Assembly (NCBI GenBank): GCA_023248995.1
Contig: JAHFDN010000001.1
Coordinates: forward strand, 51,249-115,248
Source of the DNA: Candidatus Rokuibacteriota bacterium
Lineage (GTDB): Bacteria; Methylomirabilota; Methylomirabilia; Rokubacteriales; CSP1-6
Direction of reading: 5' to 3'
DNA length: 64,000 nt
This document shows positions 34,095 through 60,127 of the stretch, piece after piece. The first letter of the stretch is position 1; every line of letters starts with the position of its first letter. A program made the position numbers and the translations under genes. The notes beneath the pieces were generated by a model. It made no database searches, was not told the origin of the DNA, and worked only from the letters and a program-made list of their open reading frames with translations.

Positions 34095-35063
34095 CTACCT
34101 CGCCGAGATCACGATCCCGTGAGGGTCGGACTCAGCGGTGAGCCCCACCTTGATTGTGTGGGTCTTGGTGTTCGTGGCGAGGTTGACCACGTCCACCGCG
34201 TGGGCACGGCGGCTGGTCACCCAGAGCTCCATCCCGTCGGGAGAGAGGTCAAGGATATCCGGGAGCTCTGAGACGGGAACCTTGGCCAGGACTTTCCGGC
34301 CGGGAACGTCCAGCACCGCCACGAAGTGCTCCTTTCGGACGGAGACGTAGGCGCGCTTGCCGTCCTTGGAAAGCACGATGCCGTGCGTGTCAGCGCCGAT
34401 TTTGATCTCGGCGACCACCTCGTCTTTCTTCGTATCGATCACCGAAACGATATTGTCGCCCCCCTCGGTAACCCAAACCTCGCCGCCTCCAGGGGCGGTC
34501 ACGGTCCCCATGGTGTCCTTACCCGCGAAGAGCTTCTTGATCACCTCGCCCGACGCCGTGGCAATCACGTAGACGTCGCCTGAACCACCGTTGGCGACGT
34601 AACCCTTCTTCCCGTCCGGGGTGAAGGTGACCAGCATGGGCTTGCTTCCCACCTTGATGGTGCGGACCACCTTTTGGCTGGCCAGATCGATGACCGACAC
34701 GGTGTCGGCCTGGACGTTGGCCGTCCAGAGCTGCTTCTCGTTGGGGGTCAACGTGACCCCGTGGGTCCCCTTGTCGGCGGGGATCACGGCCACTTCGGTC
34801 TTGGAGGCGGGATCGAAGACGGAGACCGAGCCGGACCCGACGTTGGCGGTGTAGAGCCACTTACCATCCTTGGTCAGGGCCGCGTTGTGGGGCTTGACTT
34901 GAGAGATCTTTACTGTCTCAATGACTTTTTTGGTCTTTCCGTCAATGATCGAGATAGAGTTCTCCCCCTGGTTCGTGACGTAGACCGTATAGGCCATTGC
35001 CGGCGCGACCACTGTCAGGGCGAGCAGGAAAGCGGTGAAAATAAAGAGAGAGCGTCGCAGCAT
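34095..35063 (-). CDS. Secreted YVTN-type 7-bladed beta-propeller
   Basis: Sec signal ending APAMA; seven repeats of P/T-x-G...S/TPDG..Y-V-x-N...VSVID. Confidence 0.9.
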   Translation of the reverse strand: MLRRSLFIFTAFLLALTVVAPAMAYTVYVTNQGENSISIIDGKTKKVIETVKISQVKPHNAALTKDGKWLYTANVGSGSVSVFDPASKTEVAVIPADKGTHGVTLTPNEKQLWTANVQADTVSVIDLASQKVVRTIKVGSKPMLVTFTPDGKKGYVANGGSGDVYVIATASGEVIKKLFAGKDTMGTVTAPGGGEVWVTEGGDNIVSVIDTKKDEVVAEIKIGADTHGIVLSKDGKRAYVSVRKEHFVAVLDVPGRKVLAKVPVSELPDILDLSPDGMELWVTSRRAHAVDVVNLATNTKTHTIKVGLTAESDPHGIVISAR

Positions 35064-35089
35064 GGACTTTCCTCCATCACGCGGCCGAG

Positions 35090-35857
35090 CTAGGCCGCAG
35101 GGTGAATAGCCTGGGCAGCCTCCCAACGCTGGCCCTGGCTGTTGATGAACACGATACGGAGTGTGCCTCCGCCGCTGATTTTCAACGGGAATCGGATCAA
35201 CGGGTTCGGGCTGACCGCCGAGGTCATCTGAAACTCGCTGATCTTCTGGTCGTCGAGGAAGACGAGCATCTGCCTGACGTAGAACTCGGGCTGCTCGCGG
35301 ACGAACTTTCCGCCCTGGAGGGCGAGGCCAGTGTAGGAGTTGTGGTCCAGCTTGGTCCGCACCTCCACCACCTCGCCTGCCCGGAGCGAGCGCGGCAGCC
35401 GGATCATCGGGTTTCCGAGACGCTCTCGCGCCATTTTCTCAGGGGCAGTCGTACAGCCGCCCTCTGCGACGCGGACCTCTCGGGCGCCCGTGAAGCGACC
35501 GTGGCGGGTGCACTCGCCTACGACCTTGACGACCCCGCCGATCCCGGAGCGGAAATGAAAAGCCACCCACGCCCGGCCGTTGGCCGGCGTAAAAAAGAAT
35601 TTTCCCTTGTAGGCGACGGGGTCCGTCTCCAGGCTCACCTCGAGCGACCGAATAAAATGGGCGGGCTCCATCGGATGGTCCATGGAGATCTGGAGGGGAA
35701 CGGCCACCGGATCCTCCGCCAGTACCGGGAGGTCGATCTGGGGCCGGTGGGCTGACTCCCCCTTTTCCTGCGCCCACGAGCCACGGGAAACCAGGGCCGG
35801 CGAGAGACCGGCGACGAGCGATCCGGCCATGAACTTCCTTCGGTTGAGAATTGTCAT
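35090..35857 (-). CDS. Tat-exported SoxY-SoxZ fusion with superoxide-reductase-like metal motifs
   Basis: NRRKF twin-arginine signal; LAEDPVAVP (SoxY), GGC arm, HNSYTGL and AVSPNPLIRF (SoxZ); HRP, HPMEPAHFI and CTRHG (SOR-like). Confidence 0.85.
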   Translation of the reverse strand: MTILNRRKFMAGSLVAGLSPALVSRGSWAQEKGESAHRPQIDLPVLAEDPVAVPLQISMDHPMEPAHFIRSLEVSLETDPVAYKGKFFFTPANGRAWVAFHFRSGIGGVVKVVGECTRHGRFTGAREVRVAEGGCTTAPEKMARERLGNPMIRLPRSLRAGEVVEVRTKLDHNSYTGLALQGGKFVREQPEFYVRQMLVFLDDQKISEFQMTSAVSPNPLIRFPLKISGGGTLRIVFINSQGQRWEAAQAIHPAA

Positions 35858-35876: not shown

Positions 35877-35904
35877 CTATAATGTGCCGGAACGATCCTG
35901 TCAA
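35876..35904 (-). promoter_or_regulatory. Sigma70 promoter of the SoxYZ-propeller operon
   Basis: TTGACA-17 nt-TATAGT. Confidence 0.8.
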
Positions 35905-37127
35905 GCCCCATCGTGCGGCGGCAGCGGCTTCAGGAGAATGACCGTGACCTCTCCCCCGGGGGGAATCGTGCTATCGGGAGGCACCACCGCGAGCCCGTCC
36001 GCCGCGACCATGGAGGTGACAATCGCCGATCCCTGGTCGCCGGTCAGCCGGGCGCCGTACCCCTGGCGATCCGCGGTGAGCCTCACGCGGAGATATCCCC
36101 GCCGCCCGCCCGGGTTCGGGATCGGCGCGAGAGCCCGGGCGCGGAGCATCGGGCGATGAAGTGCCGAGTGGCCGGCCATCTTCCGGAGGGCCGGTCGGAC
36201 GAAGAGCTCGAACGTCACCATGGCTGACACCGGGTTTCCGGGAAGCCCGAAGATCGGCCGGTCGCCCACGGAGCCGAAGGTGATGGGCTTGCCGGGACGC
36301 ATGGAGACCTTCCAGAGGTGCTGCTCCGCTCCGAGGCGGGTGAGCGCCTCTCGCACGAAGTCGTATTCCCCCACCGAGACGCCTGCCGAGGAGATCAGGG
36401 CGTCCGCGGCGAGCCCCCAGCGGAGTTGTTCCTCGATCGCCTCGCGGCGGTCCGGCGCCAGGCCCACGTTGACGGGTTCAGCGCCCGCCTCGAGGACCTG
36501 GGCCATCAGGGCGTAGGTGTTCGAGTTCCGGATTTTCCCAGGCCCGAGCGGCGTCCCGAGGTCTACCACTTCGTCTCCCGTCGAAAGGATCGCCACGCGG
36601 GGACGCCGGAAGACCAGCGGGCGCGACTGACCCAAGGTCGCCAGGAGCCCGACCTCGGCCGGGCCGATGACCTTCCCCGGCTCGAGCGCCGTCTCCCCCG
36701 CCCGGATGTCTTCGCCGAGCGGCCGGACGAAGACTCCGGGCTGGACGAATCGCCGAACGCGGATGCGCTCACCGAGCGTCTCGACCTCTTCCTGGGGAAC
36801 GACGCTGTCCGCTCCTTCGGGCAGCGGGGCCCCGGTGAAGATCCTGAATGCCTCGTCTCGCTCGAGCGGGCGGGCGGCGACCAACCCCGCCGGGATCGTT
36901 CCCACGACGCTCAGCTCGGTCGGCCGCTCGGGGGTCGCTCCACGCGTGTCGGACGAGCGCACGGCGTAGCCGTCCATGGACGAATTTGGCCACGGGGGGA
37001 TGTCCCCCGCGGCGACGGACGGCTCGGCGAGCACCCGCCCCAGGCACGCCAGGAGGTCTGTCCGTTCGGTGCCGAGCCGGTGGACGCGAGAGAGAATCTG
37101 CTCGAGGGCTTCTTCGACGGACAGCAC
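35901..37127 (-). CDS. moeA: Molybdopterin molybdenumtransferase
   Basis: SSMDGYAVRS, IFTGAPLPEGADSVV, STGDE, MRPGKP, GLPGNPVS. Confidence 0.96.
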   Translation of the reverse strand: MLSVEEALEQILSRVHRLGTERTDLLACLGRVLAEPSVAAGDIPPWPNSSMDGYAVRSSDTRGATPERPTELSVVGTIPAGLVAARPLERDEAFRIFTGAPLPEGADSVVPQEEVETLGERIRVRRFVQPGVFVRPLGEDIRAGETALEPGKVIGPAEVGLLATLGQSRPLVFRRPRVAILSTGDEVVDLGTPLGPGKIRNSNTYALMAQVLEAGAEPVNVGLAPDRREAIEEQLRWGLAADALISSAGVSVGEYDFVREALTRLGAEQHLWKVSMRPGKPITFGSVGDRPIFGLPGNPVSAMVTFELFVRPALRKMAGHSALHRPMLRARALAPIPNPGGRRGYLRVRLTADRQGYGARLTGDQGSAIVTSMVAADGLAVVPPDSTIPPGGEVTVILLKPLPPHDGA

Positions 37128-37160: not shown

Positions 37161-38279
37161 TCAGGCGTGAAGCCGGGCGAGAAACCAGTCGCGGCTCAGG
37201 ATGAACAGGGACAGGAAGCCGGCCGTGATGAGCATCTCGGTGAGACCGCTCGGAAAGGCGGCCCCCGCCGAGATGGATGGAACGACGAGCATCACCCGCT
37301 CCAGGAAGAGCGCCACGAGGCCCAGCAGGGTCACGAGGACCAAGGGGCCGTGCCGCTCCGGCGGCCGGCCGGTGAGCCGCTTCAGGAGGTAGACGAAGGG
37401 GAGCACCCACCCCACGACGAAGATCACGAAGGCGAGCAGCCGCCAGGGATCCACGAAGAATCTACGGAGAAAGAACTTGGTCTCGACGGGGACGTTCCCG
37501 TACCAGATGACCAGGTATTGCGACCAGAAGAAGTACATCCAGAGCGTGCTCGTGGCGAAGACCAGCTTGGCCACGTCCTGGACCGCGGCGGGGGGGATGG
37601 CGGCCAGCCCCGTGGCGTTGGCGCGCACGCTCAGAACGGCCAGGAGGGCGAAGCCGGCGTAGAGCGTGCTGACGACGAAGTACCCGCCGAAAAGCCCGCT
37701 GTACCACCGAGGGTCGAGGGACATGACGAGGTCGAAGCCGAAGAGCGACAGCACGACCACGTAGAGGAAAAGCACGGCGGTCGCCAGGGCGGCGCGCCGT
37801 CCCTTGTCTCGCCGCTCCGTCTCGGGGTCGGCCGTTCCTTGCCTGAAACCGGCGCGCACGAAGGCGAAGGTAAGCGCGTAGAGGACCAGGATCCCCACGC
37901 CGATGCGGGTGGCCATGAAGGGGACATTCAGCCAGGCCGCTTTGACCGGGATCGGGCTCGTCACCCACGGGTAGAGCGTGGCGCGGCCGCCGAAGAGAAT
38001 CAGGAAGAGGACGAACGAGACGGGGAGAAAGCCGGCCGTGGTCAGCGCGATCCGCTTGACGCCCGGCGACCAGCGGGCTTCCATGAGTTCCATCATCGCG
38101 GCGATCGCCGGCCCGGTCACCGCGAGCCCGGACCAGAAAACCAGGTTGATCAGGTAAATCGCCCAGGTCCGCTCGGCCGCCCGAGTCACCCCGAGGACAA
38201 ACGCAGCACCCCCGGCGAGGGCGATCGCCGCCAAGAAAAGCCGCGACCCCGGGGATAAGCGCTGTCCTCGGGCGATCAT
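37161..38279 (-). CDS. actF: Alternative complex III subunit F (NrfD-like membrane protein)
   Basis: KAAWLNVPF, DLVMSLDPRWYSGLFG, WMYFFWSQYLVIWYGNVPVE. Confidence 0.85.
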   Translation of the reverse strand: MIARGQRLSPGSRLFLAAIALAGGAAFVLGVTRAAERTWAIYLINLVFWSGLAVTGPAIAAMMELMEARWSPGVKRIALTTAGFLPVSFVLFLILFGGRATLYPWVTSPIPVKAAWLNVPFMATRIGVGILVLYALTFAFVRAGFRQGTADPETERRDKGRRAALATAVLFLYVVVLSLFGFDLVMSLDPRWYSGLFGGYFVVSTLYAGFALLAVLSVRANATGLAAIPPAAVQDVAKLVFATSTLWMYFFWSQYLVIWYGNVPVETKFFLRRFFVDPWRLLAFVIFVVGWVLPFVYLLKRLTGRPPERHGPLVLVTLLGLVALFLERVMLVVPSISAGAAFPSGLTEMLITAGFLSLFILSRDWFLARLHA

Positions 38280-38779
38280 TTGGCGGCGATGCTCCTCAGG
38301 TAATGCACGACGTCCCAGCGCTCCTCGGCGGACAGGGCTTCGCCGTAGGCGGGCATCACCGCTCCGCCGGTGCCGATGACGTGCTGGAGGTAGCCGTCGG
38401 TCCGCGCCTTCTGGATGGAGGGATGGGTGATGTCGGGAGGGGGGATGAACTTCGGCGAAACCAGCCCGTCTCCCTTCCCTCCGGCCCCGTGGCAGGGGGT
38501 GCAGTAGATCGCGAACAGAGCCTTGCCGCGCGCCACCGATTCGGGCGTGGCCTTGACGGGGTTCGGTCGCCGTGCGGCGAGATCCCGCGCTTCGCGCGGC
38601 GGCGTCAACTCGCCCCCGGAGCGCGGCAGGGTGCCGGCCGGCATCTCGAAGGTCCGCTCGCCGGGAACGATCTTGGGGGTACTGGTCATGTTGTCGGTCC
38701 AGCGCAGGACAATGACGCCTCCCATCAATCCCCCCGCCGCGAGGATCGTCAGGAGGACCAGGCCGAAGACGTACTTCAC
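38276..38779 (-). CDS. actE: Alternative complex III subunit E (monoheme cytochrome c)
   Basis: N-terminal TM helix, CTPCH, GDGLV, MPAYG. Confidence 0.88.
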   Translation of the reverse strand: MKYVFGLVLLTILAAGGLMGGVIVLRWTDNMTSTPKIVPGERTFEMPAGTLPRSGGELTPPREARDLAARRPNPVKATPESVARGKALFAIYCTPCHGAGGKGDGLVSPKFIPPPDITHPSIQKARTDGYLQHVIGTGGAVMPAYGEALSAEERWDVVHYLRSIAAK

Positions 38780-39282
38780 CGCCGCACCTCCTCCGCCCCC
38801 GCCTCCTGAAGGCATGTGCGGACGGCGGCGACCAGGTCCGGGGAACAGGTGACCGCGATCCCGAAGCGATCCACCGTGAAGCGCGGGTCATAGGTGGGCG
38901 AACGGCGGAGCGACGGGAGCTTCCCCAGCACCAGGATCGCCAGCAGTGAGGACAGGCCTCCCAGGAGAATCGTCAGCTCGAAGGCGATGATCACGAAGGG
39001 CGGGATCGAGACGATGGGCTTCGCGCCGGTGACCAGGCCCCACTTCAGCGAGGTCCAGATCGGGAGGGCGAATCCCGTCACGGTCCCCGTGAGCCCACCG
39101 ATGAGCGTGAACAAGCGGACGGGACTCACCGGTCGGCCTTCCTCCAACGCCGCCTCGATCTCTTCCACCGGGACCGGCAGATAGACGGAAAAGTCGGTGA
39201 ACCCCCGAGCCCGTAAGTCCCGGATCGCCCTGACGGTCGAATCCACGTGGGCAAAGATACCGAGGATGCAGGCGGCGGCCAT
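38776..39282 (-). CDS. actD: Alternative complex III subunit D (DUF3341)
   Basis: GAKPIVSIPPFVIIAFELTILL, YDPRFTVDRFGI. Confidence 0.88.
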   Translation of the reverse strand: MAAACILGIFAHVDSTVRAIRDLRARGFTDFSVYLPVPVEEIEAALEEGRPVSPVRLFTLIGGLTGTVTGFALPIWTSLKWGLVTGAKPIVSIPPFVIIAFELTILLGGLSSLLAILVLGKLPSLRRSPTYDPRFTVDRFGIAVTCSPDLVAAVRTCLQEAGAEEVRR

Positions 39283-40616
39283 CAGTGGTGAGGGTCCTTC
39301 AGGGGATGTGGGAGGGTTTCTTTGACCTCGACGATCGAGACGGAGGGCATCACCTTGATGAACCCGAGGAAGAGGATGAAGAACCAGGCGAAGCTACCGA
39401 TCACGATGAGGGTATCGGTCAGCGTTGGGTAGTAGATCCCCCACGTGTACGGGTAGAAGTCATGCCCGAGACCGGGGACGATGATGTTGAAGCGCTCGAA
39501 CCACATCCCGATCAACACGAGAATCGACACGACGTACAGAGTGGGGGGATGAATCCGAGCGCGCCGGGAGAAAAGGACGAGGGGCACCAGGCTGTTACAG
39601 AAGTACTGGAGCCAGAACGCCCAGGCGTAGTTCCGTGTGGCCTTCCAGAAGAGCGAGGCCCGCTCGAAGTGATCGCCGCTGTACCACGCGGTGAACGCCT
39701 CGCAGACGTAGAAGTACGTGAGGACGAGGCTGGTGACGAGGATCAGCTTCGCGATGGCGTCCAGGTGCCGGTTGGTGATGTAGGCGTAAAGGTTGAACAG
39801 CGGCCGCATCGGGATGATCAGGACCAGGACCATGGCGAAGCCCGAAAAGATCGCGCCGTCCACGAAGAACGGGGCGAACAGCGTCGAATGCCACCCGGGG
39901 ACGAGCGCCATCGCAAAGTCCCAGGAGACCACGCTGTGTACCGACAGCACCAGCGGTGTGGCCAAGGCCGCCAAGAGCCCGTAGGCCCGTCGGTAGTGGC
40001 GCCACTGTCGATCCGTCCCCTCCCAGCCGAGGGCGAGAACACCGTAGATCTTCCGCTTCCAGCCGGTCGAGGCGTCGCGGATGGCGGCAATGTCCGGGAG
40101 CAACCCCACGGAGAAGAAGACCACGCTGATCGTCAGGTAGGTGGAGATGGCGAAGACATCCCAGACGAGCGGCGATCGGAAGTTCGGCCAGAGGTAGCGC
40201 TGGTTCGGGTACGGGAGCAGCCAGTAGGCGAACCACATGCGGCCGGCGTGGATGAGGGGGAAGAGCCCGGCGGTCATGACCGCGAACACCGTCATCGCTT
40301 CGGCGCCGCGATAAATCGAGGTACGCCAGCGAGCCCGGAACAGGTACAGGATCGCCGAGATGAGGGTCCCGGCGTGACCGATGCCGATCCAGAATACGAA
40401 GGACGTGATGTACATCGCCCAGTTCTGGGGCGTCCGCTTTCCCGCAGCCCCCATGCCGATGTAGATCTGCCACGTCCACGCCAGGATCCCCGCGGTCAGG
40501 ATCAGCCCGACGATCGACATCCAGCCGAAGTAGGCTGGTGAGGGCGTCCAGAGGGTGCCGATGACGTCCCGGTTGACGTCGGCGTAGGTCGGCTGGTGGG
40601 CGTCGTCCCGCCTCAT
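39282..40616 (-). CDS. actC: Alternative complex III subunit C (quinol-binding NrfD protein)
   Basis: FVFWIGIGHAGTLISAIL, PNFRSPLVWDVFAISTY, LSVHSVVSWDFA, GMWFERF. Confidence 0.95.
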   Translation of the reverse strand: MRRDDAHQPTYADVNRDVIGTLWTPSPAYFGWMSIVGLILTAGILAWTWQIYIGMGAAGKRTPQNWAMYITSFVFWIGIGHAGTLISAILYLFRARWRTSIYRGAEAMTVFAVMTAGLFPLIHAGRMWFAYWLLPYPNQRYLWPNFRSPLVWDVFAISTYLTISVVFFSVGLLPDIAAIRDASTGWKRKIYGVLALGWEGTDRQWRHYRRAYGLLAALATPLVLSVHSVVSWDFAMALVPGWHSTLFAPFFVDGAIFSGFAMVLVLIIPMRPLFNLYAYITNRHLDAIAKLILVTSLVLTYFYVCEAFTAWYSGDHFERASLFWKATRNYAWAFWLQYFCNSLVPLVLFSRRARIHPPTLYVVSILVLIGMWFERFNIIVPGLGHDFYPYTWGIYYPTLTDTLIVIGSFAWFFILFLGFIKVMPSVSIVEVKETLPHPLKDPHH

Positions 40617-43564
40617 GTCTTGCCGTGGTCGCGGGTGACCTTCTTGAGGTAGGTAATCGCGGGCCGGGTCCCGAGCTCGTCCAGCACATGGTAGCCGCGC
40701 GGCGACCGAGACACCCTGGACGCCCGGCTCGACGGGTCCTTCAGGTTGCCGAAGACGATCGCCTGTGTGGGACAGGTCTGCTGGCAGGCGGTCAGGATAT
40801 CGCCGTCCGTCACCTTGCGCCCCTCATCGCGGGCACGGTCCTTCCCCCCGATAATCCGCTGGATGCACATCGTGCACTTCTCCATGACCCCCAACTGGCG
40901 GACCGTGACGTCCGGGTTGAGCTGGAGAGGCAGCGGATCGGGGAAGGCGTAGCTGCTGGACGCCGGAGAGCCGTAATCCCACCAGTTGAACCGCCGCACG
41001 TGGTAGGGACAGTTGTTGTTGCAGTAGCGCGTGCCGACGCAGCGATTGTAGACCTGAGCGTTGAGCCCCTCCTGCGTATGGTAGCTGGCGAAGACCGGGC
41101 AGACCGGCTCGCACGGGGCGACCTCGCAGTGCTGGCAGAGCATAGGCAGGAAGAGCGTGTCGGGATGGTGTGGGGGGCCCTCCTGCCAGCGCTCGATGCG
41201 GAGCCAGTGCATGTCGCGCCCGTAGGCGACCTGTTCCTTTCCCACCACCGGAACGTTGTTCTCCGCCTTGCACGCGATCACGCAGGCCTGGCATCCGATG
41301 CACGAGTCCACGTCGATCGTCATTCCCCAGCGGTACTCGGGATACTTGAGATCGGGATACATGCTGGGGTGGCTGGCCTTCTCGGGGACCGCACCCCGGA
41401 GCTCCAGCTCGCGGGCGGCGGTCAACCCCACGTGCTGCGCGAGTTCCCGTTCATCCTGGTTGGCCGTCGCCTGGGGAATGGCCAGGGGACGCCGGCCCCC
41501 GGTCTTGGTCAGCGTGAGCCTGACGGACAGGAAGGCGAGACCTCCCGGCGTCGGTGCTTGAGGCAGGAGGGCCAGGGGATTGGCGCCTCGATCTTTCGCG
41601 TAGCGGCCGTACCTGGTGTGCCCTTGGCCGATGGGAATGGCAACGGCATCCGGGTGGAGCGACTCGGAGATGTAGGCCGGTAGCTCGATCGCGCCGTGGG
41701 GGGAAGCGATCCTCACCAGATCGCCCTGGCGGACCTGGAGCGTCCTGGCGCGCTCGGCGGGAATTTCCGCCCAGGAGTCCCACGCCACCTGAGTCATGCT
41801 GTCGGGGGCTTCCTGGAGCCAGGGCTTGTTGGCGCCGCGCCCGTCGTAGAAGCGCAATGAGGGGTACGTGAGGAGCGTCGGCCCCTGGGCGCCGTCCTCG
41901 GTCGCCGTTCGCTTGCTCGCCATGGCGACCGGCTGCGCCTTCACCGGGACCGTCGGCACCCCCCTCCAGACGCCACCCCGCCGGAGCGCTTCTTCCCAGA
42001 ACTGGTCGAAGGGGGTGCCGGGGGCGACCTCCCTGGCGATCCCCCGCCATTGCTCCTTCAAGTAATCCTGGAAGGTCGCCCAGCGAAGTGGGCCTTTCCC
42101 CTCAGCCGAGCGCAGCGCCTGGCGGCCCACGGCGATGAGGACGTCGCCGACGGCTCTCGAGCCGAAGACCGGGGCCATCGTCGGCTGCATCAGCCCAACG
42201 ACGCCTTCGCGCGGCGAGAAATCACCCCAGGACTCGAGCGGATGGAGATCGGGCAGGATGAGGTGAGCGTGCTCGCTGGTCTCGTCCGGCTGGTTCGCGA
42301 AGCTCACGACCAGCGGCACTTTCTTGAGGGCATCGGCGAAGGCGGTCGTGGCGGGCAGGGTGAAGACCGGGTTCGCGTGGACCACGAGGAGGACCTCGAT
42401 CTCCCCTCTCCTCATGCTCTCGGTCAGGGCCAGCACGTCGGCGTACGAGCTCGCCTTGCCGAAGGCCGAGTCCGGGCCGAAGCGGACCGTTCGCCCCACG
42501 TTGCCCGTTGCGTAGTTCAAGAGGTGGATTGCCACCTGGACGTCCACCGCGTCGATCCCCGTGACCGCCACCCCGCCGCCGACGGCGAGCCCGGGCTTGG
42601 CCTTGGCGAGGGCGCGGGCCACGCGCTTGATGGTTTCCGCGGGGACGCCCGACTGGCGGGCGATCGCCCCGACGTCCGGCGCGCCGATCGCGCCTCTGAG
42701 CGCCGCCAGGTCCACGCCCGGGGCCTGGAGCCCTTCGTCGAGGATCACCTTGAGGAGCGCCACGGCGAGGAGCCTCTCGGTTCCCGGCGTATTCCGGATC
42801 CACTCATCAGCGTTGGCGGCGGTCATCGAGAGCCGCGGCTCCACATGGATCGAGGTGCCCGCCCTGCCGTGCGCCAGCGCGTGCATCCGGGCGAAGCCGC
42901 GGGCGTGGGCCACCGGCGACAGCCAGGTCTCCAGGAAGTCCGCGCCGAAGGAGAGGACGACATTCGCGTCCTCGAACGCGTAGTCGGGGATCGCGTCGCG
43001 GCCGAAGACCACGCGACTTGCGGCGCGAACCGCCTCGTAGTTGAAGGGCTCGTAGGCGACCCGGCGGCGCGCCCCCAGGGCCCCGCCCCACGCGTCCATC
43101 AGCCGGCCGAGGCTCCCGCTCTCGAGCTGGGTCAGGACCGCGATCCGGCGGCCCTGTTTGTCCTTGATGAGCGCGGCCAGGCGCTCGGCGAGGAATTTCT
43201 CGGCTTCTTCCCAGGCGACGGGCTTGGGGGCGCCCGACGCGTCGCGCCGGAGCGGCCCCCGCACCCGGTCCGGGTTGTAAAGCCCCTGGAGACCGGCCTG
43301 GCCGCGGATGCACAACGTCCCGCGATTCACCGGGTGGTCGGGATTGCCCTCGAGCTTGACGATGCGTCCTTCGCGGTTGCGTGCGACGACGCCGCAACCC
43401 GCCGGGCATTCGCGACAGACCGAGGAGAACCACGAGGCGACACCAGGCACGAGGTTATCGGGCGGGATCACCAGAGGCAGGATCTGCTCCGGGCTTCGGG
43501 CGCACCCGGTCATCGCCGCCGCGGTCGAGGCGCCGACGATCTTAAAGAAGTCCCGCCGCTTCAT
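40613..43564 (-). CDS. actB: Alternative complex III subunit B (molybdopterin-oxidoreductase-like plus Fe-S domain)
   Basis: KRRDFFK Tat signal, KLEGNPDHP, GANKPWLQE, CIGCQACVIACKAENN, CQHCEVAPCEPVCP, CVGTRYCNNNCPY, MEKCTMC. Confidence 0.93.
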   Translation of the reverse strand: MKRRDFFKIVGASTAAAMTGCARSPEQILPLVIPPDNLVPGVASWFSSVCRECPAGCGVVARNREGRIVKLEGNPDHPVNRGTLCIRGQAGLQGLYNPDRVRGPLRRDASGAPKPVAWEEAEKFLAERLAALIKDKQGRRIAVLTQLESGSLGRLMDAWGGALGARRRVAYEPFNYEAVRAASRVVFGRDAIPDYAFEDANVVLSFGADFLETWLSPVAHARGFARMHALAHGRAGTSIHVEPRLSMTAANADEWIRNTPGTERLLAVALLKVILDEGLQAPGVDLAALRGAIGAPDVGAIARQSGVPAETIKRVARALAKAKPGLAVGGGVAVTGIDAVDVQVAIHLLNYATGNVGRTVRFGPDSAFGKASSYADVLALTESMRRGEIEVLLVVHANPVFTLPATTAFADALKKVPLVVSFANQPDETSEHAHLILPDLHPLESWGDFSPREGVVGLMQPTMAPVFGSRAVGDVLIAVGRQALRSAEGKGPLRWATFQDYLKEQWRGIAREVAPGTPFDQFWEEALRRGGVWRGVPTVPVKAQPVAMASKRTATEDGAQGPTLLTYPSLRFYDGRGANKPWLQEAPDSMTQVAWDSWAEIPAERARTLQVRQGDLVRIASPHGAIELPAYISESLHPDAVAIPIGQGHTRYGRYAKDRGANPLALLPQAPTPGGLAFLSVRLTLTKTGGRRPLAIPQATANQDERELAQHVGLTAARELELRGAVPEKASHPSMYPDLKYPEYRWGMTIDVDSCIGCQACVIACKAENNVPVVGKEQVAYGRDMHWLRIERWQEGPPHHPDTLFLPMLCQHCEVAPCEPVCPVFASYHTQEGLNAQVYNRCVGTRYCNNNCPYHVRRFNWWDYGSPASSSYAFPDPLPLQLNPDVTVRQLGVMEKCTMCIQRIIGGKDRARDEGRKVTDGDILTACQQTCPTQAIVFGNLKDPSSRASRVSRSPRGYHVLDELGTRPAITYLKKVTRDHGKT

Positions 43565-45580: not shown

Positions 45581-46042
45581 TCAGAATCCCTTCAGCGTCA
45601 CGGGGAGAAACTCGCGCCGATCCTGGCTCCACGCGAACGCGGCCGCACCCGACAGCCTTCCGCCCAGAACCGAGACGACCACGTACGTCGCGTCGGGATA
45701 GATGGGCTCGCCCTGGAGGAGGGCGTTCTGCTTGTCGGTCTCCGAGAAGTATGCGCCCGCGTCGATGTGGGAGTGGTAGATCGTCCTCACCCGGTATCCT
45801 TCGCCTTCCAGGCGTCCAATCCGGAGAAGATCCTTCGGGTCGACCTGGTAGGCGACCCGCGCGTCGCGCGGGTGCCGGGACGGGTCCTTGATGTGGAGCT
45901 CGTTCTGAATGTTCCGGCAGGCGACCACGAGCCGATCGCCCGGCGCGCCGTTCCGCTCGAGCACGACGCCGCAGCATTCGGACGGGTATTCGGTCTCGGC
46001 TTGGGCGCGGATCCGCTCGAATTCCTCGCGGCCGAGGATCAT
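45581..46042 (-). CDS. JAMM/MPN+ metallopeptidase (Mec/CysO-cysteine peptidase-like)
   Basis: YPSECCG; [15 protein letters not shown] (HxH-x7-S-x2-D JAMM motif). Confidence 0.9.
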
Positions 46043-46317
46043 CGCCCTCCGGCCAGCGCCGGGATGATCGTCACCTCGTCGCCGTCCTTGAGCGGCGTCG
46101 CGAGGCCCTCGAGGGCGTCGATAGCCTCGCTGTTGACGTAGATGTTCACGTGAGCATGCACCTCGCCCCGATCGTTTCGCACCAGGCCCTTGAGCCCGCC
46201 GAACGTGTCCTCGAGCCGATCCAGGAGGCGGCCGACGTTCGGCGCCTCGACCTCGACCTTGTCTTTGTTGTTGGTCGCCCGTCGGAACGGGGTCGGAATG
46301 TACACCTGCACTGGCAT
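46039..46317 (-). CDS. MoaD/ThiS/CysO-type ubiquitin-like sulfur carrier
   Basis: [31 protein letters not shown]. Confidence 0.92.
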   Translation of the reverse strand: MPVQVYIPTPFRRATNNKDKVEVEAPNVGRLLDRLEDTFGGLKGLVRNDRGEVHAHVNIYVNSEAIDALEGLATPLKDGDEVTIIPALAGGR

Positions 46318-46351
46318 ACGCACGCCTCCTCGAAACGCCCCGGCCCTTTTT

Positions 46352-47296
46352 CTAGAACGTCAGGCTCAGGTAGCGCTCGCCCGTGTCGGGCAAGATGGTC
46401 ACGACGACCTGCTCGGGGTCGAGCCGCGCGGCCACCTGGCAGGCGGCAAACACGGCGGCGCCCGCCGATATTCCCACAAGCAGCCCTTCCTCGCGCGTCA
46501 GGCGTTTGGCCGTCGTGATGGCGTCCTCGTCCCGCACCTGGATGATCTCGTCGAGCACCTTGGGGTTCAGCACGCCCGGGACGAAGGAAGCCCCGATCCC
46601 CTGGATGGCGTGCGGGCGGCCCCTGCCGCCGGACAGAACGGGGGAGCGGGCCGGCTCCACGGCCACGATCTTGACGCCCGGCACCTTCTCCTTGAGCACC
46701 TCCCCGACCCCCGTGATGGTTCCCCCCGTCCCGACCCCGGCGACGAAGGCGTGGATCCGCCCCATGGTGGCGTCGAGAATCTCGAGCGCCGTCGTTCGCC
46801 GGTGGATCTCGGGGTTCGCCGGGTTCTCGAACTGCTGGGGCATGAAGTAGTCGGGATGCTCCCGGACGAGCTCCTGGGCGGCGTGCACGGCCCCGGTCAT
46901 CCCTTCGATCGCCGGCGTCAGGTGGAGCTCCGCGCCGAGTCGGGCCAGGAGCCGCTGGCGTTCCACGCTCATGTCGTCCGGCATGGTCAGGATCAGCCGG
47001 TACTGCCGCACCGCCGAAACGATCGCCAGGCCGATTCCGGTGTTGCCGCTGGTGGGCTCGACGATGGTGGACCCCGGCCTGAGCAGCCCGCGCCGCTCGG
47101 CGTCGTCGATCATGCTGACGGCGATGCGGTCCTTCACGCTTCCGCCCGGGTTGAGGGATTCGAGCTTCGCGAGCACGGTCGCGCCGCCCGGACTGGGCAG
47201 GCGGTTGAGTCGGACGAGCGGGGTACTGCCGACCAGCTCCAGCACGGACGCGGCGATCTTGGGGCGGTCCGTCGCTTCTCCTCGGCGTTGCGCCAT
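46352..47296 (-). CDS. cysK: Cysteine synthase A
   Basis: [53 protein letters not shown]. Confidence 0.95.
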
Positions 47297-47341
47297 GGCG
47301 CCCTTTCCTATCGAGGTGTCGTGGTTTGCCGGCAAAAAAAA

Positions 47342-47788
47342 TTAAATATGGTACATCGGCCGCGCGGCGCTCCGCCGCTGCTCGACCCGGCGACACAGGT
47401 CGGCGAACGAGATGCGGTCAACCACCCCGGAGACCGCCGCGGAGATCTCTCCCCAGAGGTCCTGGAGATCGCTGCTGTGGTCCGAGGCCCCACGCCGTGC
47501 GCCTCGCGGGCGCGCGTCCCCGCGCTCCAGGGAGCCTTCCATGGCACGGAGCACCGAGCCGACGGTGATCTCGTCCGGCGGCCGTATCAGGTGATAGCCG
47601 CCGGCCGAGCCGCGCTTCGACTGCAGGAAGCCCGCGCCCTTGAGCAGGAGCAGGACCTGCTCCAGATAGCGCTGCGGGATCGCCTGCCGCCCGGCGATAT
47701 CCTGAATCGGGATCAGCCCCGCGCCGTAGTGGAGGGCCAGATCCAGCATCGCCTTGATCGCGTATTCGCCCTTCGCCGAGATCCGCAT
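47342..47788 (-). CDS. Rrf2-family regulator lacking Fe-S cysteines (CymR-like)
   Basis: MRISAKGEYA, YLEQVL...SKRGSAGGY, C-terminal MYHI. Confidence 0.88.
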   Translation of the reverse strand: MRISAKGEYAIKAMLDLALHYGAGLIPIQDIAGRQAIPQRYLEQVLLLLKGAGFLQSKRGSAGGYHLIRPPDEITVGSVLRAMEGSLERGDARPRGARRGASDHSSDLQDLWGEISAAVSGVVDRISFADLCRRVEQRRSAARPMYHI

Positions 47789-55263: not shown

Positions 55264-56199
55264 TCAGGAGAGGACGACCTGCCCCGCGGCCATGATCACG
55301 TGCTTGACCAGCAAGCCACCCAGCAGGATCAGGACGGCGGAAATGGCCACGAGCCCCGGGCTCCCGCGCTGGCGCCGGATCACCTCCAGAACCAGTGGTA
55401 CGATCGATCCCACGACCACAGCCCCGAGCCAGAAGGTCATACTGTACGGGCCGCTGACGAGCAACGCCAGTGACTGCGCCGCACCCTCCGCGCCGGACAT
55501 CTCGACCGTCAGGAGAAATAGGGCCAGGGTCACGACCTGCAGCAACAGGGCGGGGATTGTGACCCACCGCATCTGGTTGAGGCTCCCTCCTGCTTCTCGG
55601 CCGAGGAACGACAGGATCAGGGCGATCGCCGCGGCCCCCGAGGTCGCGCCGACTGCCAGGAACAGGGCGCCCAGGAAGCGTCCGTTCTGGAAGAGGGGGC
55701 GGGCGGTTGCGCCGAGGAGCACGCCGGGGTAGGCCGCGAGGAAGAAGGCGAAGAATCCCCCGAGGACCCCTGCGGTGCTGCGGAGCGCCGAGAGGTCGCG
55801 CCCCGGCCCCGCATCCTCCAAAAATACCGACAGTGCCGCCAGCAAGGTGAACAGGCCGAATCCCGTGAGGGCCCAGGCCCCCATGTTCATCGGCGAAAAC
55901 GGCTTGATATGGATCGCCCCCAGGTTGATCGCATCCATGCCGATCGTGGTGTCGGGCTTGGCCACCATGAGCATGTGGAGGAAGCGGCTCGGTATCCCGA
56001 GGTCAACGGTCAGGAGGATCGGCGCGGGGATCAAGGCGATGAGGGCCAGGTAGTAGCCGACCCTGACCACTTCACGGTTCCGCTTGCCGCCCACCAGATG
56101 GGCGATCGTGGCGATCACAAACGCCCCGCCGGCGAGCCCGCCGAGGAAGAAATAGAAGTCGATCAGAAAGGGCCAGTCCGCGCTCTTGAGGAGGGGCAT
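55264..56199 (-). CDS. NrfD/PsrC-type membrane anchor of formate dehydrogenase
   Basis: YFFLGGLAGG, DLGIPSRF, SPMNMGAWAL, YPGVLL. Confidence 0.9.
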   Translation of the reverse strand: MPLLKSADWPFLIDFYFFLGGLAGGAFVIATIAHLVGGKRNREVVRVGYYLALIALIPAPILLTVDLGIPSRFLHMLMVAKPDTTIGMDAINLGAIHIKPFSPMNMGAWALTGFGLFTLLAALSVFLEDAGPGRDLSALRSTAGVLGGFFAFFLAAYPGVLLGATARPLFQNGRFLGALFLAVGATSGAAAIALILSFLGREAGGSLNQMRWVTIPALLLQVVTLALFLLTVEMSGAEGAAQSLALLVSGPYSMTFWLGAVVVGSIVPLVLEVIRRQRGSPGLVAISAVLILLGGLLVKHVIMAAGQVVLS

Positions 56200-56202
56200 C
56201 GG

Positions 56203-56970
56203 CTACTCCTTTCCGCCCCGCTCCCTGAAGGCCACCAGGGCGCCGACCCCCACCAGCAGGGCCGAGCCGATGGACAGGAGCGAGTCCACGAAGACGTTGT
56301 TCTGCGGGAGCCGAGGCTTCTCCGGCAGGCCGTACACGGACGGCCGGTCCAGGAGCAGGAAGAACGCGTTGAGGCCGCCCAGGGGACCGTTCTGGTCCTC
56401 GCCGTAGAGCTGGGCGTTCTTGAAGCCCATCTTCTTGAGATCCTCGACGCGCTTCCGGGCCCTGGCGGCCAGCTCGTCCCTGAAGCCGAAACTGATGGAC
56501 TGGGTGGGACAGGCTTTGGCGCAGGCCGGGCCCAGGCCGTTGTGGAGCCGGTCGTTGCAGAACGTGCACTTGTTGGCGCGACCGGTGTCGTGGTTGAACG
56601 CCACCACGCCGAAGGGGCAGGCCGAGACGCAGTACCGGCAGCCGTTACAGATGTCCTGGTTGATGTTGACGGTGCCGTACTGGGTCCGGTAGATGGCGCC
56701 GGTGGGACAGGCCTCGAGGCAGCCCGCCTGGGCGCAGTGTTTGCAGACGTCGGACATCAGGTGCCACATGAGGGCACCTTTGTCATCCTTCTTTTCGATG
56801 AAGCGCACGAGGCGGTAGCTCTTGTCGGTGAAGTGGGCATGGTTCTGGTATGTTCCGGTCCACTCCGGCTCCTCTGCCGGGAGCTGGTTCCACTGCTTGC
56901 AGGCAACCTGGCAGGCGCGACAGCCGATGCACAGGGAGACATCCGTGAACATCGCGACCGTGCGGGCCAT
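56203..56970 (-). CDS. Formate dehydrogenase Fe-S subunit
   Basis: CIGCRACQVACK, CKHC...CLEACP, CNGCRYCVSACP, KCTFC...CAKACP; C-terminal TM helix. Confidence 0.93.
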   Translation of the reverse strand: MARTVAMFTDVSLCIGCRACQVACKQWNQLPAEEPEWTGTYQNHAHFTDKSYRLVRFIEKKDDKGALMWHLMSDVCKHCAQAGCLEACPTGAIYRTQYGTVNINQDICNGCRYCVSACPFGVVAFNHDTGRANKCTFCNDRLHNGLGPACAKACPTQSISFGFRDELAARARKRVEDLKKMGFKNAQLYGEDQNGPLGGLNAFFLLLDRPSVYGLPEKPRLPQNNVFVDSLLSIGSALLVGVGALVAFRERGGKE

Positions 56971-56972
56971 GG

Positions 56973-59900
56973 CTATGCCACCCCCTTCCTGACGTTACAG
57001 AGGAGCGCTTTGGACTCCTGAATGAACGTCGTGGGGTCACCCAGGCTCGCCACGAGGTCGTTGGTGATGTCGCCGCGGGAGGAGGGCATGACGCCCTGGT
57101 ACCCCCAGTGCCAAGGGATCCCGACCTGGTAGACCTTCTTGCCATTGATGATGAACGGCTGGATCCGTTCAGTGACCATGGCGCGGACCTTGATCTTGCT
57201 CCGCGGGGTCTCCACGGTGATCATGTCGCCGTTGTTGATCCCCAGCTCCTTGGCCATCTCCGGGCCGATCTCAGCGAAGTGGCCGAAGAAGAGCTCGGAG
57301 AGCCAGGGCACGTGGCGCGACATGCCGGCCGCGTGGTGCTCCGTGAGCCGGTAGGTGGTCAAGACGTACGGGTACTTGTCGGGACCGCCGAGTCGGTTCA
57401 GATCGCCGATGTCCCATACCTTGGCGACCGGGTTGTGGTCAACCTTGGACAGGAGGTTCTTGGTCGGCGACTCGTATGGCTCGTAGTGCTCCGGGAAGGG
57501 CCCATCCAGTATGGACGCGAAGAACTGCCCCTTGCCGTGGGCGTTCATGATGAACGCGTCAATGCCGCTGATCCCCTTGAGCGGCCCCTCCTTTGCCCGC
57601 GGCGCGTCCGGGGCCATGACTAGGCCGAAGTCGGGCACATCCAGCCCAATCCACTTCTTCTGCTCCGCATCCCACCAGATGAGCTTCTTCTTCTCGCTCC
57701 AGGGCTTCCCCTTCGGGTCGGCGGAGGCGCGGTTATAGAGGATGCGGCGGTTGGCCGGCCAGGCGAAGCCCCAGCCGTGGGCCAGGTAGTCACCGTCCTT
57801 TGGCCGCTCGCGACGGGCGGCCAGGTTCTTCCCCTCCTCCGGGTAGATGCCGCCGTAGATCCAGTTGCCGCCTGCCGTCAGGCCGTCGTCCCTGAGCTGG
57901 ATGAAGCTCTTGAGGTGGTCCCCCTTCTTGAAAAGGACCTTGCCGTCCTTGTCGGTGATGTCGTCGGTCGCGTACCCGTTGATCTCCTTCAGCACCAGCT
58001 CCATCTTGGGCTCCTTCTTGGGCCCCTGGGGCTGGTAGTCCCAGACGAGATCGATGATCGGCCGATCCTTCTTGGCCTTCGAATCCTTGTAGAGCTCCTT
58101 TACACGGTTCCCCACGTCCACGATGAAGGCCGCGTCAGACCGGGCGTCGCCCGGCGGGTCAACGGCTTTCGTGTGCCACTGAGCCAGCCTCATCGTGTTG
58201 GTGATTGAGCCGTCCTTCTCGGCGGCGGGAGCGCCGGGGATAAAGAAAACCTCCGCCTTGGAGGACTTGGGGTCGATCCCCGGCTCCTTCCAGACTGCGG
58301 CGGTGTCGGTCTCGAAGAGATCCACCACCACCATCCACTCCAGGTTCCTGAGGGCCATTCGGGCCATCTTGGCGTTGGGGCTGTCCACGGCCGGGTTCTG
58401 GCCCATCACGATGAACCCCTTGACCTGCTTTTTCAGCATCCCCACCAGGAAGTGCTGATGGGAATACGCATCCGCCTTCTCCCGCTTGGGGAGATAGTCG
58501 TACGCGTAGTCGCTCTCCTTGCTTGCCGCGGGTCCCCACCAGGCCTTGAGCTGGCTGACGACAAACTTGGGATTGTTGACCCAGAAACCCCCCTTGGGCG
58601 TCGTCTTCTCCAGGTAATCCATGAGGGTCGGGTGCGGCGCCTGCAAGGGCATCGGCGGGTAGCCCGGGAGCATGTGGTAGAGAGTTCCGAAGTCGGTCGC
58701 CCCCTGGACGTTGGAGTGTCCGCGAAGGGCGACCACGCCCCCGCCGGGCCGTCCGATGTTCCCCAGAATGAGCTGGAGCATGCAGAGCGACCGGATCTGC
58801 TGGACACCGTTGGTGGACTGGTTGAGCTGAAGGGCGTAGGAGATCGTGGAAGTCTTGTCCGGCCCTGAAGCTGAACAGAAAATATCCGCCACCTTCAGGA
58901 ACAGGTCCTTGGGAATCCCGCACACCCGCTCCACCATCTCGGGGGTGTAGCGGCTGTAGTGGCGCCGCAGGAGCTGGAAGACGCAGCTCGGGTCGCGGAG
59001 CGTCGGATCCTGCTTGGGGTAGCCATCCGCGTCAAGCTGGAACTTCCAGGTGGTCTGGTCGTAGCTCCGCTTGGCCCGGTCGTAGCCCGTGAAAAGGCCG
59101 TTGAAGTCGGTCGGCGTCCTGAACTGCGGGTCCACCAGGAACGGGGCGTTCGTGTAGTTCACCACGTAATCGTGGAAGTACTTCTTGCTCTCAATGGCGT
59201 AGCGGATCAGCCCGCCGAAGTAGACGGTGTTAGTCCCGGAGCGGATGGGGACCCAGATATCGGCCGTGGCCGAAGTGCGAGTGAAGCGCGGATCCACGTG
59301 GATGATCTTGGCCCCTCGCTCCTTGGCTTTCATCACCCACTTGTAGCTCACCGGGTGACATTCGGCCCAGTTCGAAGTGGGCATGATCACGTCGGCGTTG
59401 ATGACGTCGATCAGGTTCGTGGTCATGGCCCCTCGGCCGAAGGTCGCGCCCAGGGCCGGCACCGTTGCCGAGTGGCAGACACGAGCTGAGTTCTCCACGT
59501 TGACGAGGCCCATGCCGCGGGCCAGCTTGGCGATGAGGTAGTTCTCCTCGTTGTCGAGGACGGAGGAGCCGAGCCAGGCGATCCCCTCGCAGCGGTTGAC
59601 CGTGACTTCCTTGTCGCCCACCTTTGCCTTTTCGACGAAGGTCTCGTCCCGGCTCTTTTTGACCCGCTGGGCGATCTGCTCCATCATCCAGTCAAGAGGC
59701 TTCTCCTCCCACTTGTCGCTCCCGGGGGCGCGGTACATGCACTTCGTCCAGCGCCGCTCGTTGATCGACACCTGGTAGGTAGACGAGCCCTTCGGGCAGA
59801 GTGCGCCCTCGGTGTGGGGCGTGTTCGGGTCGCCCTCGATATCTATAATCTTCCCGTCCTTGACGTAGATCAGCTGGGCGCACCCGACCGCGCAGTAAGG

Positions 59901-60050: not shown

Positions 60051-60127
60051 CGTCGCACCTCCTGTGAGCCGTCTCCGCAAGACGACCTTGTGAGAAGTTT
60101 CTCGTGCATTCCTCCCAACTGCGCCTG

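Follow-up and report, generated by a model that had tools for sequence, protein, structure and literature searches.

A secreted seven-bladed YVTN propeller with a conserved ring of His, Met and Asp residues, encoded beside a SoxYZ-like fusion in Rokubacteria

The propeller gene and its ring of His, Met and Asp residues

The window analysed here is a 64,000-nucleotide stretch of a Candidatus Rokuibacteriota genome (assembly GCA_023248995.1, contig JAHFDN010000001.1, positions 51,249 to 115,248). It holds a gene for a secreted seven-bladed YVTN propeller, preceded on the same strand by a gene that joins a superoxide reductase (SOR)-like/SoxY domain to a SoxZ domain, and faced by a convergent gene for a YeeE/TsuA-type sulfur transporter (Table 1). 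The ATG at 35063 is the most likely translation start of the propeller because GGAGGA lies 6 nt upstream of it and the TAG of the preceding gene lies at 35090-35092. A hydrophobic N-terminus is present in all relatives of the propeller, and export is probably Sec-dependent, since the arginine pair (RR) of the signal peptide is not kept among the orthologs.

Table 1. Features of the propeller locus in window coordinates. Counts for single residues refer to the 39 non-redundant relatives described in the text.
Feature	Position	Strand	Evidence or remark
Open reading frame of the propeller	34095..35126	-	Open reading frame
Secreted seven-bladed YVTN propeller gene, 322 residues (stop included in coordinates)	34095..35063	-	Open reading frame; PF21783, TIGR02276; AlphaFold2 model
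GGAGGA ribosome-binding site	35070..35075	-	Sequence; 6 nt 5' of ATG 35063
Predicted signal peptide, residues 1-24, ending AMA/YT	34992..35063	-	Sequence; pLDDT ~51-56 over residues 1-20
Ring residue H59, blade 1, KP-H-N	34887..34889	-	39/39
Ring residue H101, GT-H-G	34761..34763	-	39/39; hhalign pairing with NosZ His, see text
Ring residue M143, KP-M-L	34635..34637	-	M 21, A 15, Q 3 of 39; sole variable position
Ring residue M185, DT-M-G	34509..34511	-	39/39
Ring residue H227, DT-H-G	34383..34385	-	39/39
Ring residue D269, LP-D-I	34257..34259	-	39/39
Ring residue H315, DP-H-G	34119..34121	-	38/39; 7 residues from C-terminus
Invariant polar residue N31	34971..34973	-	Conservation
Invariant polar residue N116	34716..34718	-	Conservation
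Invariant polar residue R243	34335..34337	-	Conservation
Invariant polar residue T283		-	Conservation
Invariant polar residue R285	34209..34211	-	Conservation
Fusion of SOR-like/SoxY domain, EGGC arm and SoxZ domain, Tat signal; 5' neighbour of propeller	35090..35857	-	SoxZ 59.9, SoxY 55.2, Desulfoferrodox 39 bits
SOR-type ligand positions of the fusion	35501..35749	-	Alignment
 H38	35747..35749	-	
 H62	35675..35677	-	
 H68	35657..35659	-	
 C117	35510..35512	-	
 H120	35501..35503	-	
Arm residue C136 of the fusion	35453..35455	-	
YeeE/TsuA-type sulfur transporter, convergent; C32, C101, C295	33077..34081	+	PF04143 232.6 bits; NF052577 184.6 bits vs cut-off 400
moeA, molybdopterin molybdenum insertion	35901..37127	-	Pfam
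ACIII-like genes: ActB-like Mo/FeS, NrfD-type ActC, ActD, cytochrome c (38276..38815), ActF-like	37161..43564	-	Pfam
Cluster of Rrf2 regulator, PLP-dependent (cysteine synthase-like), ThiS-like and JAB genes	45581..47788	-	
Second molybdopterin oxidoreductase, FeS, NrfD set, polysulfide/thiosulfate reductase type	55264..60080	-	

The mature protein of 298 residues is made of seven 42-residue YVTN repeats and contains seven His, three Met and no Cys. It belongs to the YVTN family by TIGR02276 (181.7 bits against a cut-off of 27.85, in seven stretches) and to the YNCE-like family PF21783 (74.2 bits, cut-off 27.1), and PF10282 matches it with 51.4 bits. All annotation names returned for it are generic, as are the YVTN clusters that are its only counterparts in the ESM Atlas. 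An AlphaFold2 model built from a 55-row alignment has 28 strands, a mean pLDDT of 94.9 and a pTM of 0.90; together with the match of this model to the solved structure 1L0Q (TM 0.87 with Foldseek; Z 47.5 with VIA-align), it gives the seven-bladed fold that the original prediction, made from the letters of the window, had proposed.

That prediction had also pointed to one equivalent position per blade, reading H/H/M/M/H/D/H around the propeller, and direct translation agrees with it in every blade and in its flanking context. In the AlphaFold2 model each of these ring residues comes second in the fourth strand of the repeat to which it belongs, a strand that opens with P/T-x-G/N, and the seven side chains would be expected to converge on the propeller axis. 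We compared all 42 registers of the repeat, and only the register of residue 59 gives His, Met, Cys, Asp or Glu in seven of seven blades; the next best gives four, which are structural Asp columns. The binomial probability of finding His or Met at six or more of the seven positions is 1e-8, and the ring exceeds chance expectation.

Conservation of the ring was followed at two depths. A survey of 61 genomes of the same order, among them the unpublished G009 and G023 (which gave paralog-level matches only), found orthologs of the propeller in 12 genomes, the window's own included, at 62-95% identity, with the next best match at 38%; the ring is kept in every one of these orthologs. For remoter relatives, down to 33% identity, representative genomes were scanned with the fusion protein and metagenome contigs with the propeller alignment, and removal of sequences more than 85% alike left 39 non-redundant relatives at 33-78% identity. 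Only 19 of the 298 mature columns are invariant across this set, and H59, H101, M185, H227 and D269 are among them (hypergeometric P = 1.2e-5 for at least five of seven preselected positions). The original prediction had named free variation of these positions as a ground for giving it up; six of the seven proved essentially invariant to 33% identity, and the seventh, position 143, is Met, Ala or Gln. The propeller relatives are not independent of one another, and locus counts given below overstate the number of independent observations.

Eleven of the invariant residues are neither Gly nor Pro, namely the five ring residues and N31, N116, F147, R243, T283 and R285. With the exception of F147, which lies elsewhere, these additional residues occur at YVTN strand ends, and strand topology would place them on the same face of the propeller as the ring.

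The complete ring pattern is restricted to this subfamily. Generic YVTN proteins recovered in the same metagenome scan have unrelated residues at the ring positions (for example LLIVVL, WIISF or YLGMC), a TIGR03866-like paralog in the window's own genome has R/E/E/R/V/W/W, and 1L0Q has M/Q/L/K/S/A at the ring positions that its alignment covers. A phmmer search with the propeller returned, among the 150 matches listed, almost nothing other than giant multi-propeller proteins. As a separate observation, locus L021 of genome G011 carries two propeller genes in tandem (2-394 and 446-1390), the second of which is truncated where the contig ends and shares 60% identity with the window propeller over residues 2-132.

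Position of the ring and comparison with known propellers

Strand topology, the matching of ranges with nitrous oxide reductase (NosZ) and the repeat motif of NosZ all point indirectly to the ring lying at the mouth of the central channel. The blades of propellers run from an innermost strand A to an outermost strand D, and the circle is mostly closed by a "velcro" blade to which both termini contribute (PMC3797127). In our protein the first strand follows directly after the signal peptide and the last strand (residues 314-320) is the P-H-G strand, an arrangement that fits the P-H-G strand as strand A of a 1+3 velcro blade in the model. YVTN blades have been grouped with WD40 blades (PMC3797127), and the subfamily profile matches WDR5 with an E-value of 7e-8. 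In WD40 repeats, the strand that precedes the S-P-D-G-like turn is strand A.

NosZ is a periplasmic enzyme with a copper-sulfur centre, the CuZ cluster, whose last ligand is His437 in the numbering of 1qni (PMC13685413); the titles of mutant entries give it as H494 in P. stutzeri. NosZ propellers lie outside the top 49 Foldseek matches of our model and were found when VIA-align was run over the Foldseek top 1000. They superimpose colinearly on it with Z ~37 (37.4) and an rmsd (root-mean-square deviation) of 1.8 Å over 295 of 300 residues, ranking just below 1L0Q and the lactonases, and the aligned ranges are 23-322 of the model against 18-444 of 1qni and 68-501 of 3sbp. Each of His437, H494 and H315 precedes its end of the alignment range by seven residues. 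When the remaining P. stutzeri ligands are assigned by order and by spacing from the range ends, H129/H130 would correspond to H59, H178 to H101, H326 to M185, H382 to H227 and H433 to D269, and the NosZ blade that provides no ligand would correspond to position 143. By this range-based mapping, the sole variable position of the ring thus appears to fall on the ligand-free blade of NosZ.

The likeness extends to the repeat itself. PF18764 matches in 3 of 201 genomes of the phylum, and two NosZ genes of the phylum share exactly seven propeller His, spaced like the CuZ ligands; one of these His lies within S-P-H-G-V-x-x-x-P-x-G-E-Y, which is a plain YVTN-type repeat. NosZ and the propeller have in common seven blades, a P-H-G...P-x-G repeat motif, and ring or ligand residues of which each blade supplies one, at the start of the corresponding strand. 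The propeller is nevertheless not a NosZ. It scores 86.8 bits against a cut-off of 700 on the L-NosZ family NF052460, PF18764 has no match in the window's genome, and, unlike NosZ, it is found without nos accessory genes and in a context of sulfur rather than nitrogen.

Another copper propeller was reached by both profile and fold. The thiocyanate dehydrogenase (TcDH) of Pelomicrobium was matched in the Protein Data Bank by the subfamily profile with an E-value of 2.2e-9, over query residues 99-220 only (~120 residues), and by VIA-align with Z 34.9 and an rmsd of 2.1 Å over 298 residues at 19% identity. It ranked 14th in the profile search, and use of a larger gammaproteobacterial propeller (from locus L077, described below) as the query did not bring it to the top either. 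TcDH holds three Cu ions in its central tunnel, converts thiocyanate to cyanate and sulfur, and delivers electrons to cytochrome c (PMC9456337). It offers a seven-bladed propeller that is periplasmic and combines a sulfur substrate with a hub metal and a cytochrome c acceptor; it differs from our protein in its length (~470-550 residues, with insertions), its Tat signal and its gene context. Kinship of the two is suggested at the level of profile and fold.

Among named subfamilies, TIGR03866 gives the highest score, and the propeller reaches 190.6 bits on it, below the cut-off of 287.3 (protein P0002 reaches 257.5). This family includes PedA2, which is similarly secreted and similar in size, and which has been described as a YVTN protein of unknown function in the pedA1A2BC operon that is needed for lanthanide-dependent growth (PMC6839425). 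In P. putida the cluster of PedA2 also encodes a SoxYZ-like carrier in fused form (TIGR04557), along with a rhodanese and a hydrolase resembling SoxH (PMC12997753). With a score of 96.7 the fusion in the window stays under the TIGR04557 cut-off of 140, and it differs from that carrier in having SOR-type ligands; neither an ABC transporter nor a pyrroloquinoline quinone (PQQ) dehydrogenase gene lies near the propeller. The TIGR03866-like paralog in the same genome (G000:C10:64351-65229; L105 1417-2391) is a secreted YVTN protein with 276 bits, just below the cut-off, and adjoins genes for a di-haem-like cytochrome c and a small membrane protein.

Among solved structures, the nearest to the propeller is the archaeal S-layer YVTN propeller 1L0Q (E 9.3e-58; rmsd 1.2 Å; 34% identity), which has the same 42-residue repeat; unlike our protein, it belongs to a large protein of the surface layer, and its entry names no cofactor. 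The parallel with methanethiol oxidase/SELENBP1 that the original prediction had drawn does not extend to sequence kinship, SBP56 being absent from the 20 Pfam families that match at E <= 0.01.

A group of YVTN propeller-cupredoxin fusions of ~385-500 residues (P0029, P0052, P0053, P0056, P0107, P0120 and others) has His at four or five of the ring positions. We considered P0029, P0052, P0053, P0107, P0120 and similar members as clade III L-NosZ and rejected this assignment on their scores of ~92-110 bits on NF052460 against the cut-off of 700; they form an unnamed group and may have copper centres of their own. Also set aside was homology of the P-H-G His with the structural "GH" His of WD40 repeats, since the former lies ~5 residues further into the strand from the S-P-D-G turn, judged by the WD40 register.

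Gene neighbourhoods of the propeller and its relatives

The ACIII-like genes, moeA, the fusion gene and the propeller gene lie on the same strand with tight spacing, and this gene order is kept in relatives. A profile of the fusion aligns end to end with the SOR of Ignicoccus (E 4e-9) and also with SoxZ (E 2e-9). The H, H..H and C..H motifs of SOR, which we take to be the iron ligands, align with residues H38, H62, H68, C117 and H120 of the fusion, and these five residues together with C136 of the arm are invariant in 18 of 18 sequences at 60-91% identity. Arm residues 135-145 are the only internal stretch of low confidence in the fusion model (pLDDT < 50), so that in the model the EGGC arm behaves as expected of a swinging arm. 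The informative single-domain Foldseek matches of this model are SoxZ (TM 0.78-0.80) and Ignicoccus SOR (TM 0.65), the remainder being mostly generic tandem Ig domains. A word-indexed search gave 345 relatives of the fusion at E <= 0.001; the best 120 of these 345 all have the same three Pfam families, and the source names among the matches listed are all Rokubacteria/Methylomirabilota.

The order moeA, fusion, propeller and convergent yeeE recurs in relatives, and the fusion is directly 5' of the propeller in 8 of the 8 relatives' loci in which the contig permits the check. We also approached the neighbourhood from the side of the fusion, using 32 Rokubacteria-type fusion loci (L025-L056), six of which share genomes with the same-order ortholog survey. 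The slot 3' of the fusion is occupied by the propeller in 8 loci, by the flavoprotein of a flavocytochrome-c sulfide dehydrogenase (FCSD) in 8 (L047-L049, L051, L039, L027, L055 and L056), by yeeE directly in 6, and by other genes or the contig end in 10. Propeller and FCSD flavoprotein were found together in none of the 32. The flavoprotein is of the FccB/SoxF type and periplasmic, with a Tat signal in L056; like the propeller in other loci it is encoded between the fusion and yeeE, and a cytochrome c gene follows it in 5 of its 8 loci. Its fold is unrelated to that of the propeller and its cofactor is FAD, so the likeness is positional only.

Beyond the Rokubacteria, remote fusions or split pairs of SoxY-like and SoxZ-like proteins (34-42% identity; Nitrospirae and others) are accompanied in seven loci by a propeller of 38-51% identity whose ring reads HH[M/Q]MHDH. 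A monoheme cytochrome c gene lies directly 5' of the propeller in seven Nitrospirae-type loci. By Pfam, further cytochromes c and BNR/Ycf48-like propellers occur nearby in L071; in L058 the neighbours include a cytochrome domain of SoxA/TsdA type and a phosphoesterase of the calcineurin-like (SoxB-like) kind.

The metagenome loci divide by the residue at position 143. Loci of the Met-143 type (n = 14) contain the fusion in 6 of the 6 that have at least 800 nt upstream and a YeeE homolog in 4 of 14. Loci of the Ala-143 type (n = 33) contain the fusion in 0 of 24 assessable cases, with the window fusion as the query, and a YeeE homolog in 7 of 33. The Ala-143 type is a sister clade (ring HHAMHDH, 37-44% identity) in which signal-like N-termini are kept. 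Its propeller genes in L149, L140, L142 and L134 (~2100-7100) are found in the order TauE, sulfite reductase, propeller, PAPS reductase, ATP sulfurylase and rhodanese, and in L151 in the order ThiF, YeeE, rhodanese, TusA, propeller and TusA. L154 is likewise an Ala-type locus of this sister clade, within an assimilatory sulfate-reduction or YeeE-rhodanese-TusA operon.

The fusion thus adjoins the propeller genes of the Met/Gln-143 type, and that part of the partnership with the SOR-SoxYZ protein asserted in the original prediction stands; the partnership is obligate in neither direction, given fusion loci that have no propeller and an Ala-143 clade that has no fusion. Prediction of the complex itself, which had been suggested as a check, gave a median ipSAE of 0.59 for propeller and fusion against 0.00 for the best control, with at least 94% contact agreement between runs and a pLDDT of at least 84 for the partner. 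The ipSAE mark that we applied is reached by 116 of 157 solved complexes and by 2 of 215 mismatched pairs, but only 18 of these solved complexes, and both mismatched pairs, do so with values of 0.60 or less; the model lends weak support to a propeller-fusion complex.

Split SOR-like SoxY and SoxZ genes with YeeE were also observed in gammaproteobacterial and SAR324 loci (L077 6836-13040 and L078-L092). By Pfam, L077 contains in addition a SoxB-like phosphoesterase/5'-nucleotidase, a DUF302 protein and a cytochrome c. Six of the loci L077-L092 encode a larger YVTN-like propeller of ~425-510 residues, and five of these read R-R/K-x-N-H-gap-N at the ring positions.

Possible function of the propeller

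Export, a fixed His/Asp/Met hub and sulfur are the steady themes of these data. The reading that we tentatively favour is of a metal centre at the hub, probably copper, that acts on sulfide or on carrier-bound sulfur. The ring of the periplasmic propeller would hold a metal, with copper the likeliest and more than one ion conceivable, in a site built like the CuZ site of NosZ and the tri-copper site of TcDH but with a His4-Asp-Met set, plus Met, Gln or Ala at position 143. We favour copper because of the precedent of NosZ and TcDH, the chemistry of His and Met, and the exchange of Met and Gln at position 143. A change from Met to Gln is a known exchange of axial copper ligands in cupredoxins, and His/Met sets suit the binding of periplasmic Cu(I).

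With such a centre the propeller would oxidise or transfer reduced sulfur, either sulfide or the sulfane sulfur that the fusion carries on its Cys arm. A c-type cytochrome would take up the electrons, here perhaps by way of the ACIII-like complex of the upstream genes, and the sulfur would move on to YeeE, the channel whose gene is adjacent; YeeE-like SoxT proteins have been proposed to take sulfur from SoxYZ (PMC11582611). We read the Met/Gln type as a candidate redox enzyme because of its SoxY-like carrier with a Cys arm, the c-type cytochromes, the alternation with sulfide dehydrogenase and the kinship with copper propellers.

Several observations weigh against this reading. Of the 32 Rokubacteria-type fusion loci, 24 do without the propeller, and the operons of the Ala-143 type, which belong to cytoplasmic sulfur assimilation, have no redox partner nearby. 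The blade-by-blade correspondence with NosZ is drawn from ranges and spacing and not from a superposition, and hhalign pairs the S-P-H-G His of NosZ with H101 weakly (E 0.0038, probability 8.8%, 31 columns). NosZ has seven His where the propeller has four His, an Asp and two Met; NosZ also has a C-terminal cupredoxin CuA domain, whereas the propeller ends seven residues past H315 and has no cupredoxin match in Pfam. No copper chaperone or maturation gene was recognised with Pfam among the 46 open reading frames of the window, and the weakness of the predicted complex counts on the same side. In addition, His is common at the ring position in generic YVTN proteins, being present in 36/91 to 43/114 of word-indexed hits in three of the blades (n = 115, a sample biased to proteins that share words with the propeller), and a single His at this position means little alone.

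The main rival is a pocket that contains no metal, in which the ring and the invariant Asn, Gln and Arg residues would bind thiosulfate, sulfite or polysulfide, or else the carrier's Cys arm, and in which the protein would capture sulfur and hand it off to YeeE- or TauE-type transporters without being an enzyme. We regard this as doubtful, though it is sustained by the context of the Ala-143 type, where a role in binding or hand-off fits better than an oxidase. The wider subfamily is linked to transporters and sulfur handling more than to redox partners, as the YeeE homologs in Ala-type and Met-type metagenome loci illustrate; N31, N116, R243 and R285 lie invariant beside the ring, and acceptance of SoxYZ sulfur by SoxT would supply a model for the hand-off. 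Yet an invariant Met and an invariant Asp are unusual for an oxyanion site, and the propeller lacks any Cys with which to carry sulfur. Its ring positions coincide with the metal ligands of NosZ, as far as the range-based mapping and the weak hhalign match go. The alternation of propeller and sulfide dehydrogenase in one slot, and the pairing of the propeller with cytochrome c in seven loci, likewise count against the pocket.

A role in metal trafficking seems improbable. Here the ring would do no more than store or deliver a metal, supplying for instance the SOR-type site of the fusion with iron or another periplasmic protein with copper, in the manner that might be imagined for PedA2 in its lanthanide ABC importer operon. 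The TIGR03866 score (the highest for a named family) and the place of PedA2 in pedA1A2BC, the invariant His4Cys site of the fusion partner and the aptness of His/Met sets for Cu(I) would all suit such a role. It accords poorly with the genes that adjoin the propeller, which include no ABC transporter or metal importer, with an Ala-type clade that lacks an SOR-like partner and with an own-genome TIGR03866-like paralog that lacks the ring, and six fixed hub ligands resemble a permanent site and not one of transfer.

Least probable is a passive scaffold that merely holds partners, with His, Met and Asp structural to the YVTN lineage: despite the frequency of His at the P-x-G position in YVTN hits, the many YVTN proteins that have no known cofactor, the S-layer domain as closest structure and the uniformly generic annotation, the position is hypervariable across the family and yet fixed at six of seven blades in a subfamily of 33-78% identity, the ring supplies 5 of its 11 invariant non-Gly/Pro residues, and a sulfur-related gene context is consistent over three contexts and several phyla. 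The original prediction had argued that the protein is more than such a scaffold, and this is the better reading given the subfamily-specific ring, its CuZ-like position within the blade, secretion and the neighbouring fusion.

The hub metal centre can be carried further, to a proposal that we consider rather unlikely when taken with all its parts. The propeller would found a new family of copper-cluster propeller enzymes, small, stand-alone and secreted, with a hub of the NosZ/TcDH type made of His4-Asp-Met. They would oxidise sulfide, or sulfane sulfur bound to a SoxY-type carrier; with a c-type cytochrome as electron acceptor and YeeE as recipient of the sulfur, they would amount to a flavin-free alternative to flavocytochrome-c sulfide dehydrogenase, and sulfur assimilation would be the task of the Ala-143 clade. 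A published account of such a propeller was not found in the literature searched (one library, on the themes of YVTN, SoxYZ, YeeE and copper). If the proposal is true, this would be a third seven-bladed family with copper at the hub besides nitrous oxide reductase and TcDH, the two encountered in the analysis, much smaller than these, with different ligands and linked to sulfur. It would give a function to part of the large pool of proteins annotated as "YVTN/lactonase family protein", and, for Methylomirabilota/Rokubacteria, Nitrospirota and others, would fill a gap in the periplasm upstream of YeeE/SoxT-type sulfur import. A soluble 30-kDa protein with six candidate ligands and obvious partners puts the hypothesis within reach of direct tests.

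Two further observations concern the genes around the propeller and the genome as a whole. A multihaem ActA gene was not recognised in the ACIII-like set, and because of this and of moeA on the same strand, the ActB-like subunit may truly bind molybdenum. Elsewhere in the genome (G000:C41; L116 1279-2182), separate genes encode a canonical SoxY that ends in GGCGG and a SoxZ, beside a fragment of a molybdopterin enzyme, and the organism has both an ordinary SoxYZ carrier and the SOR-like fusion.

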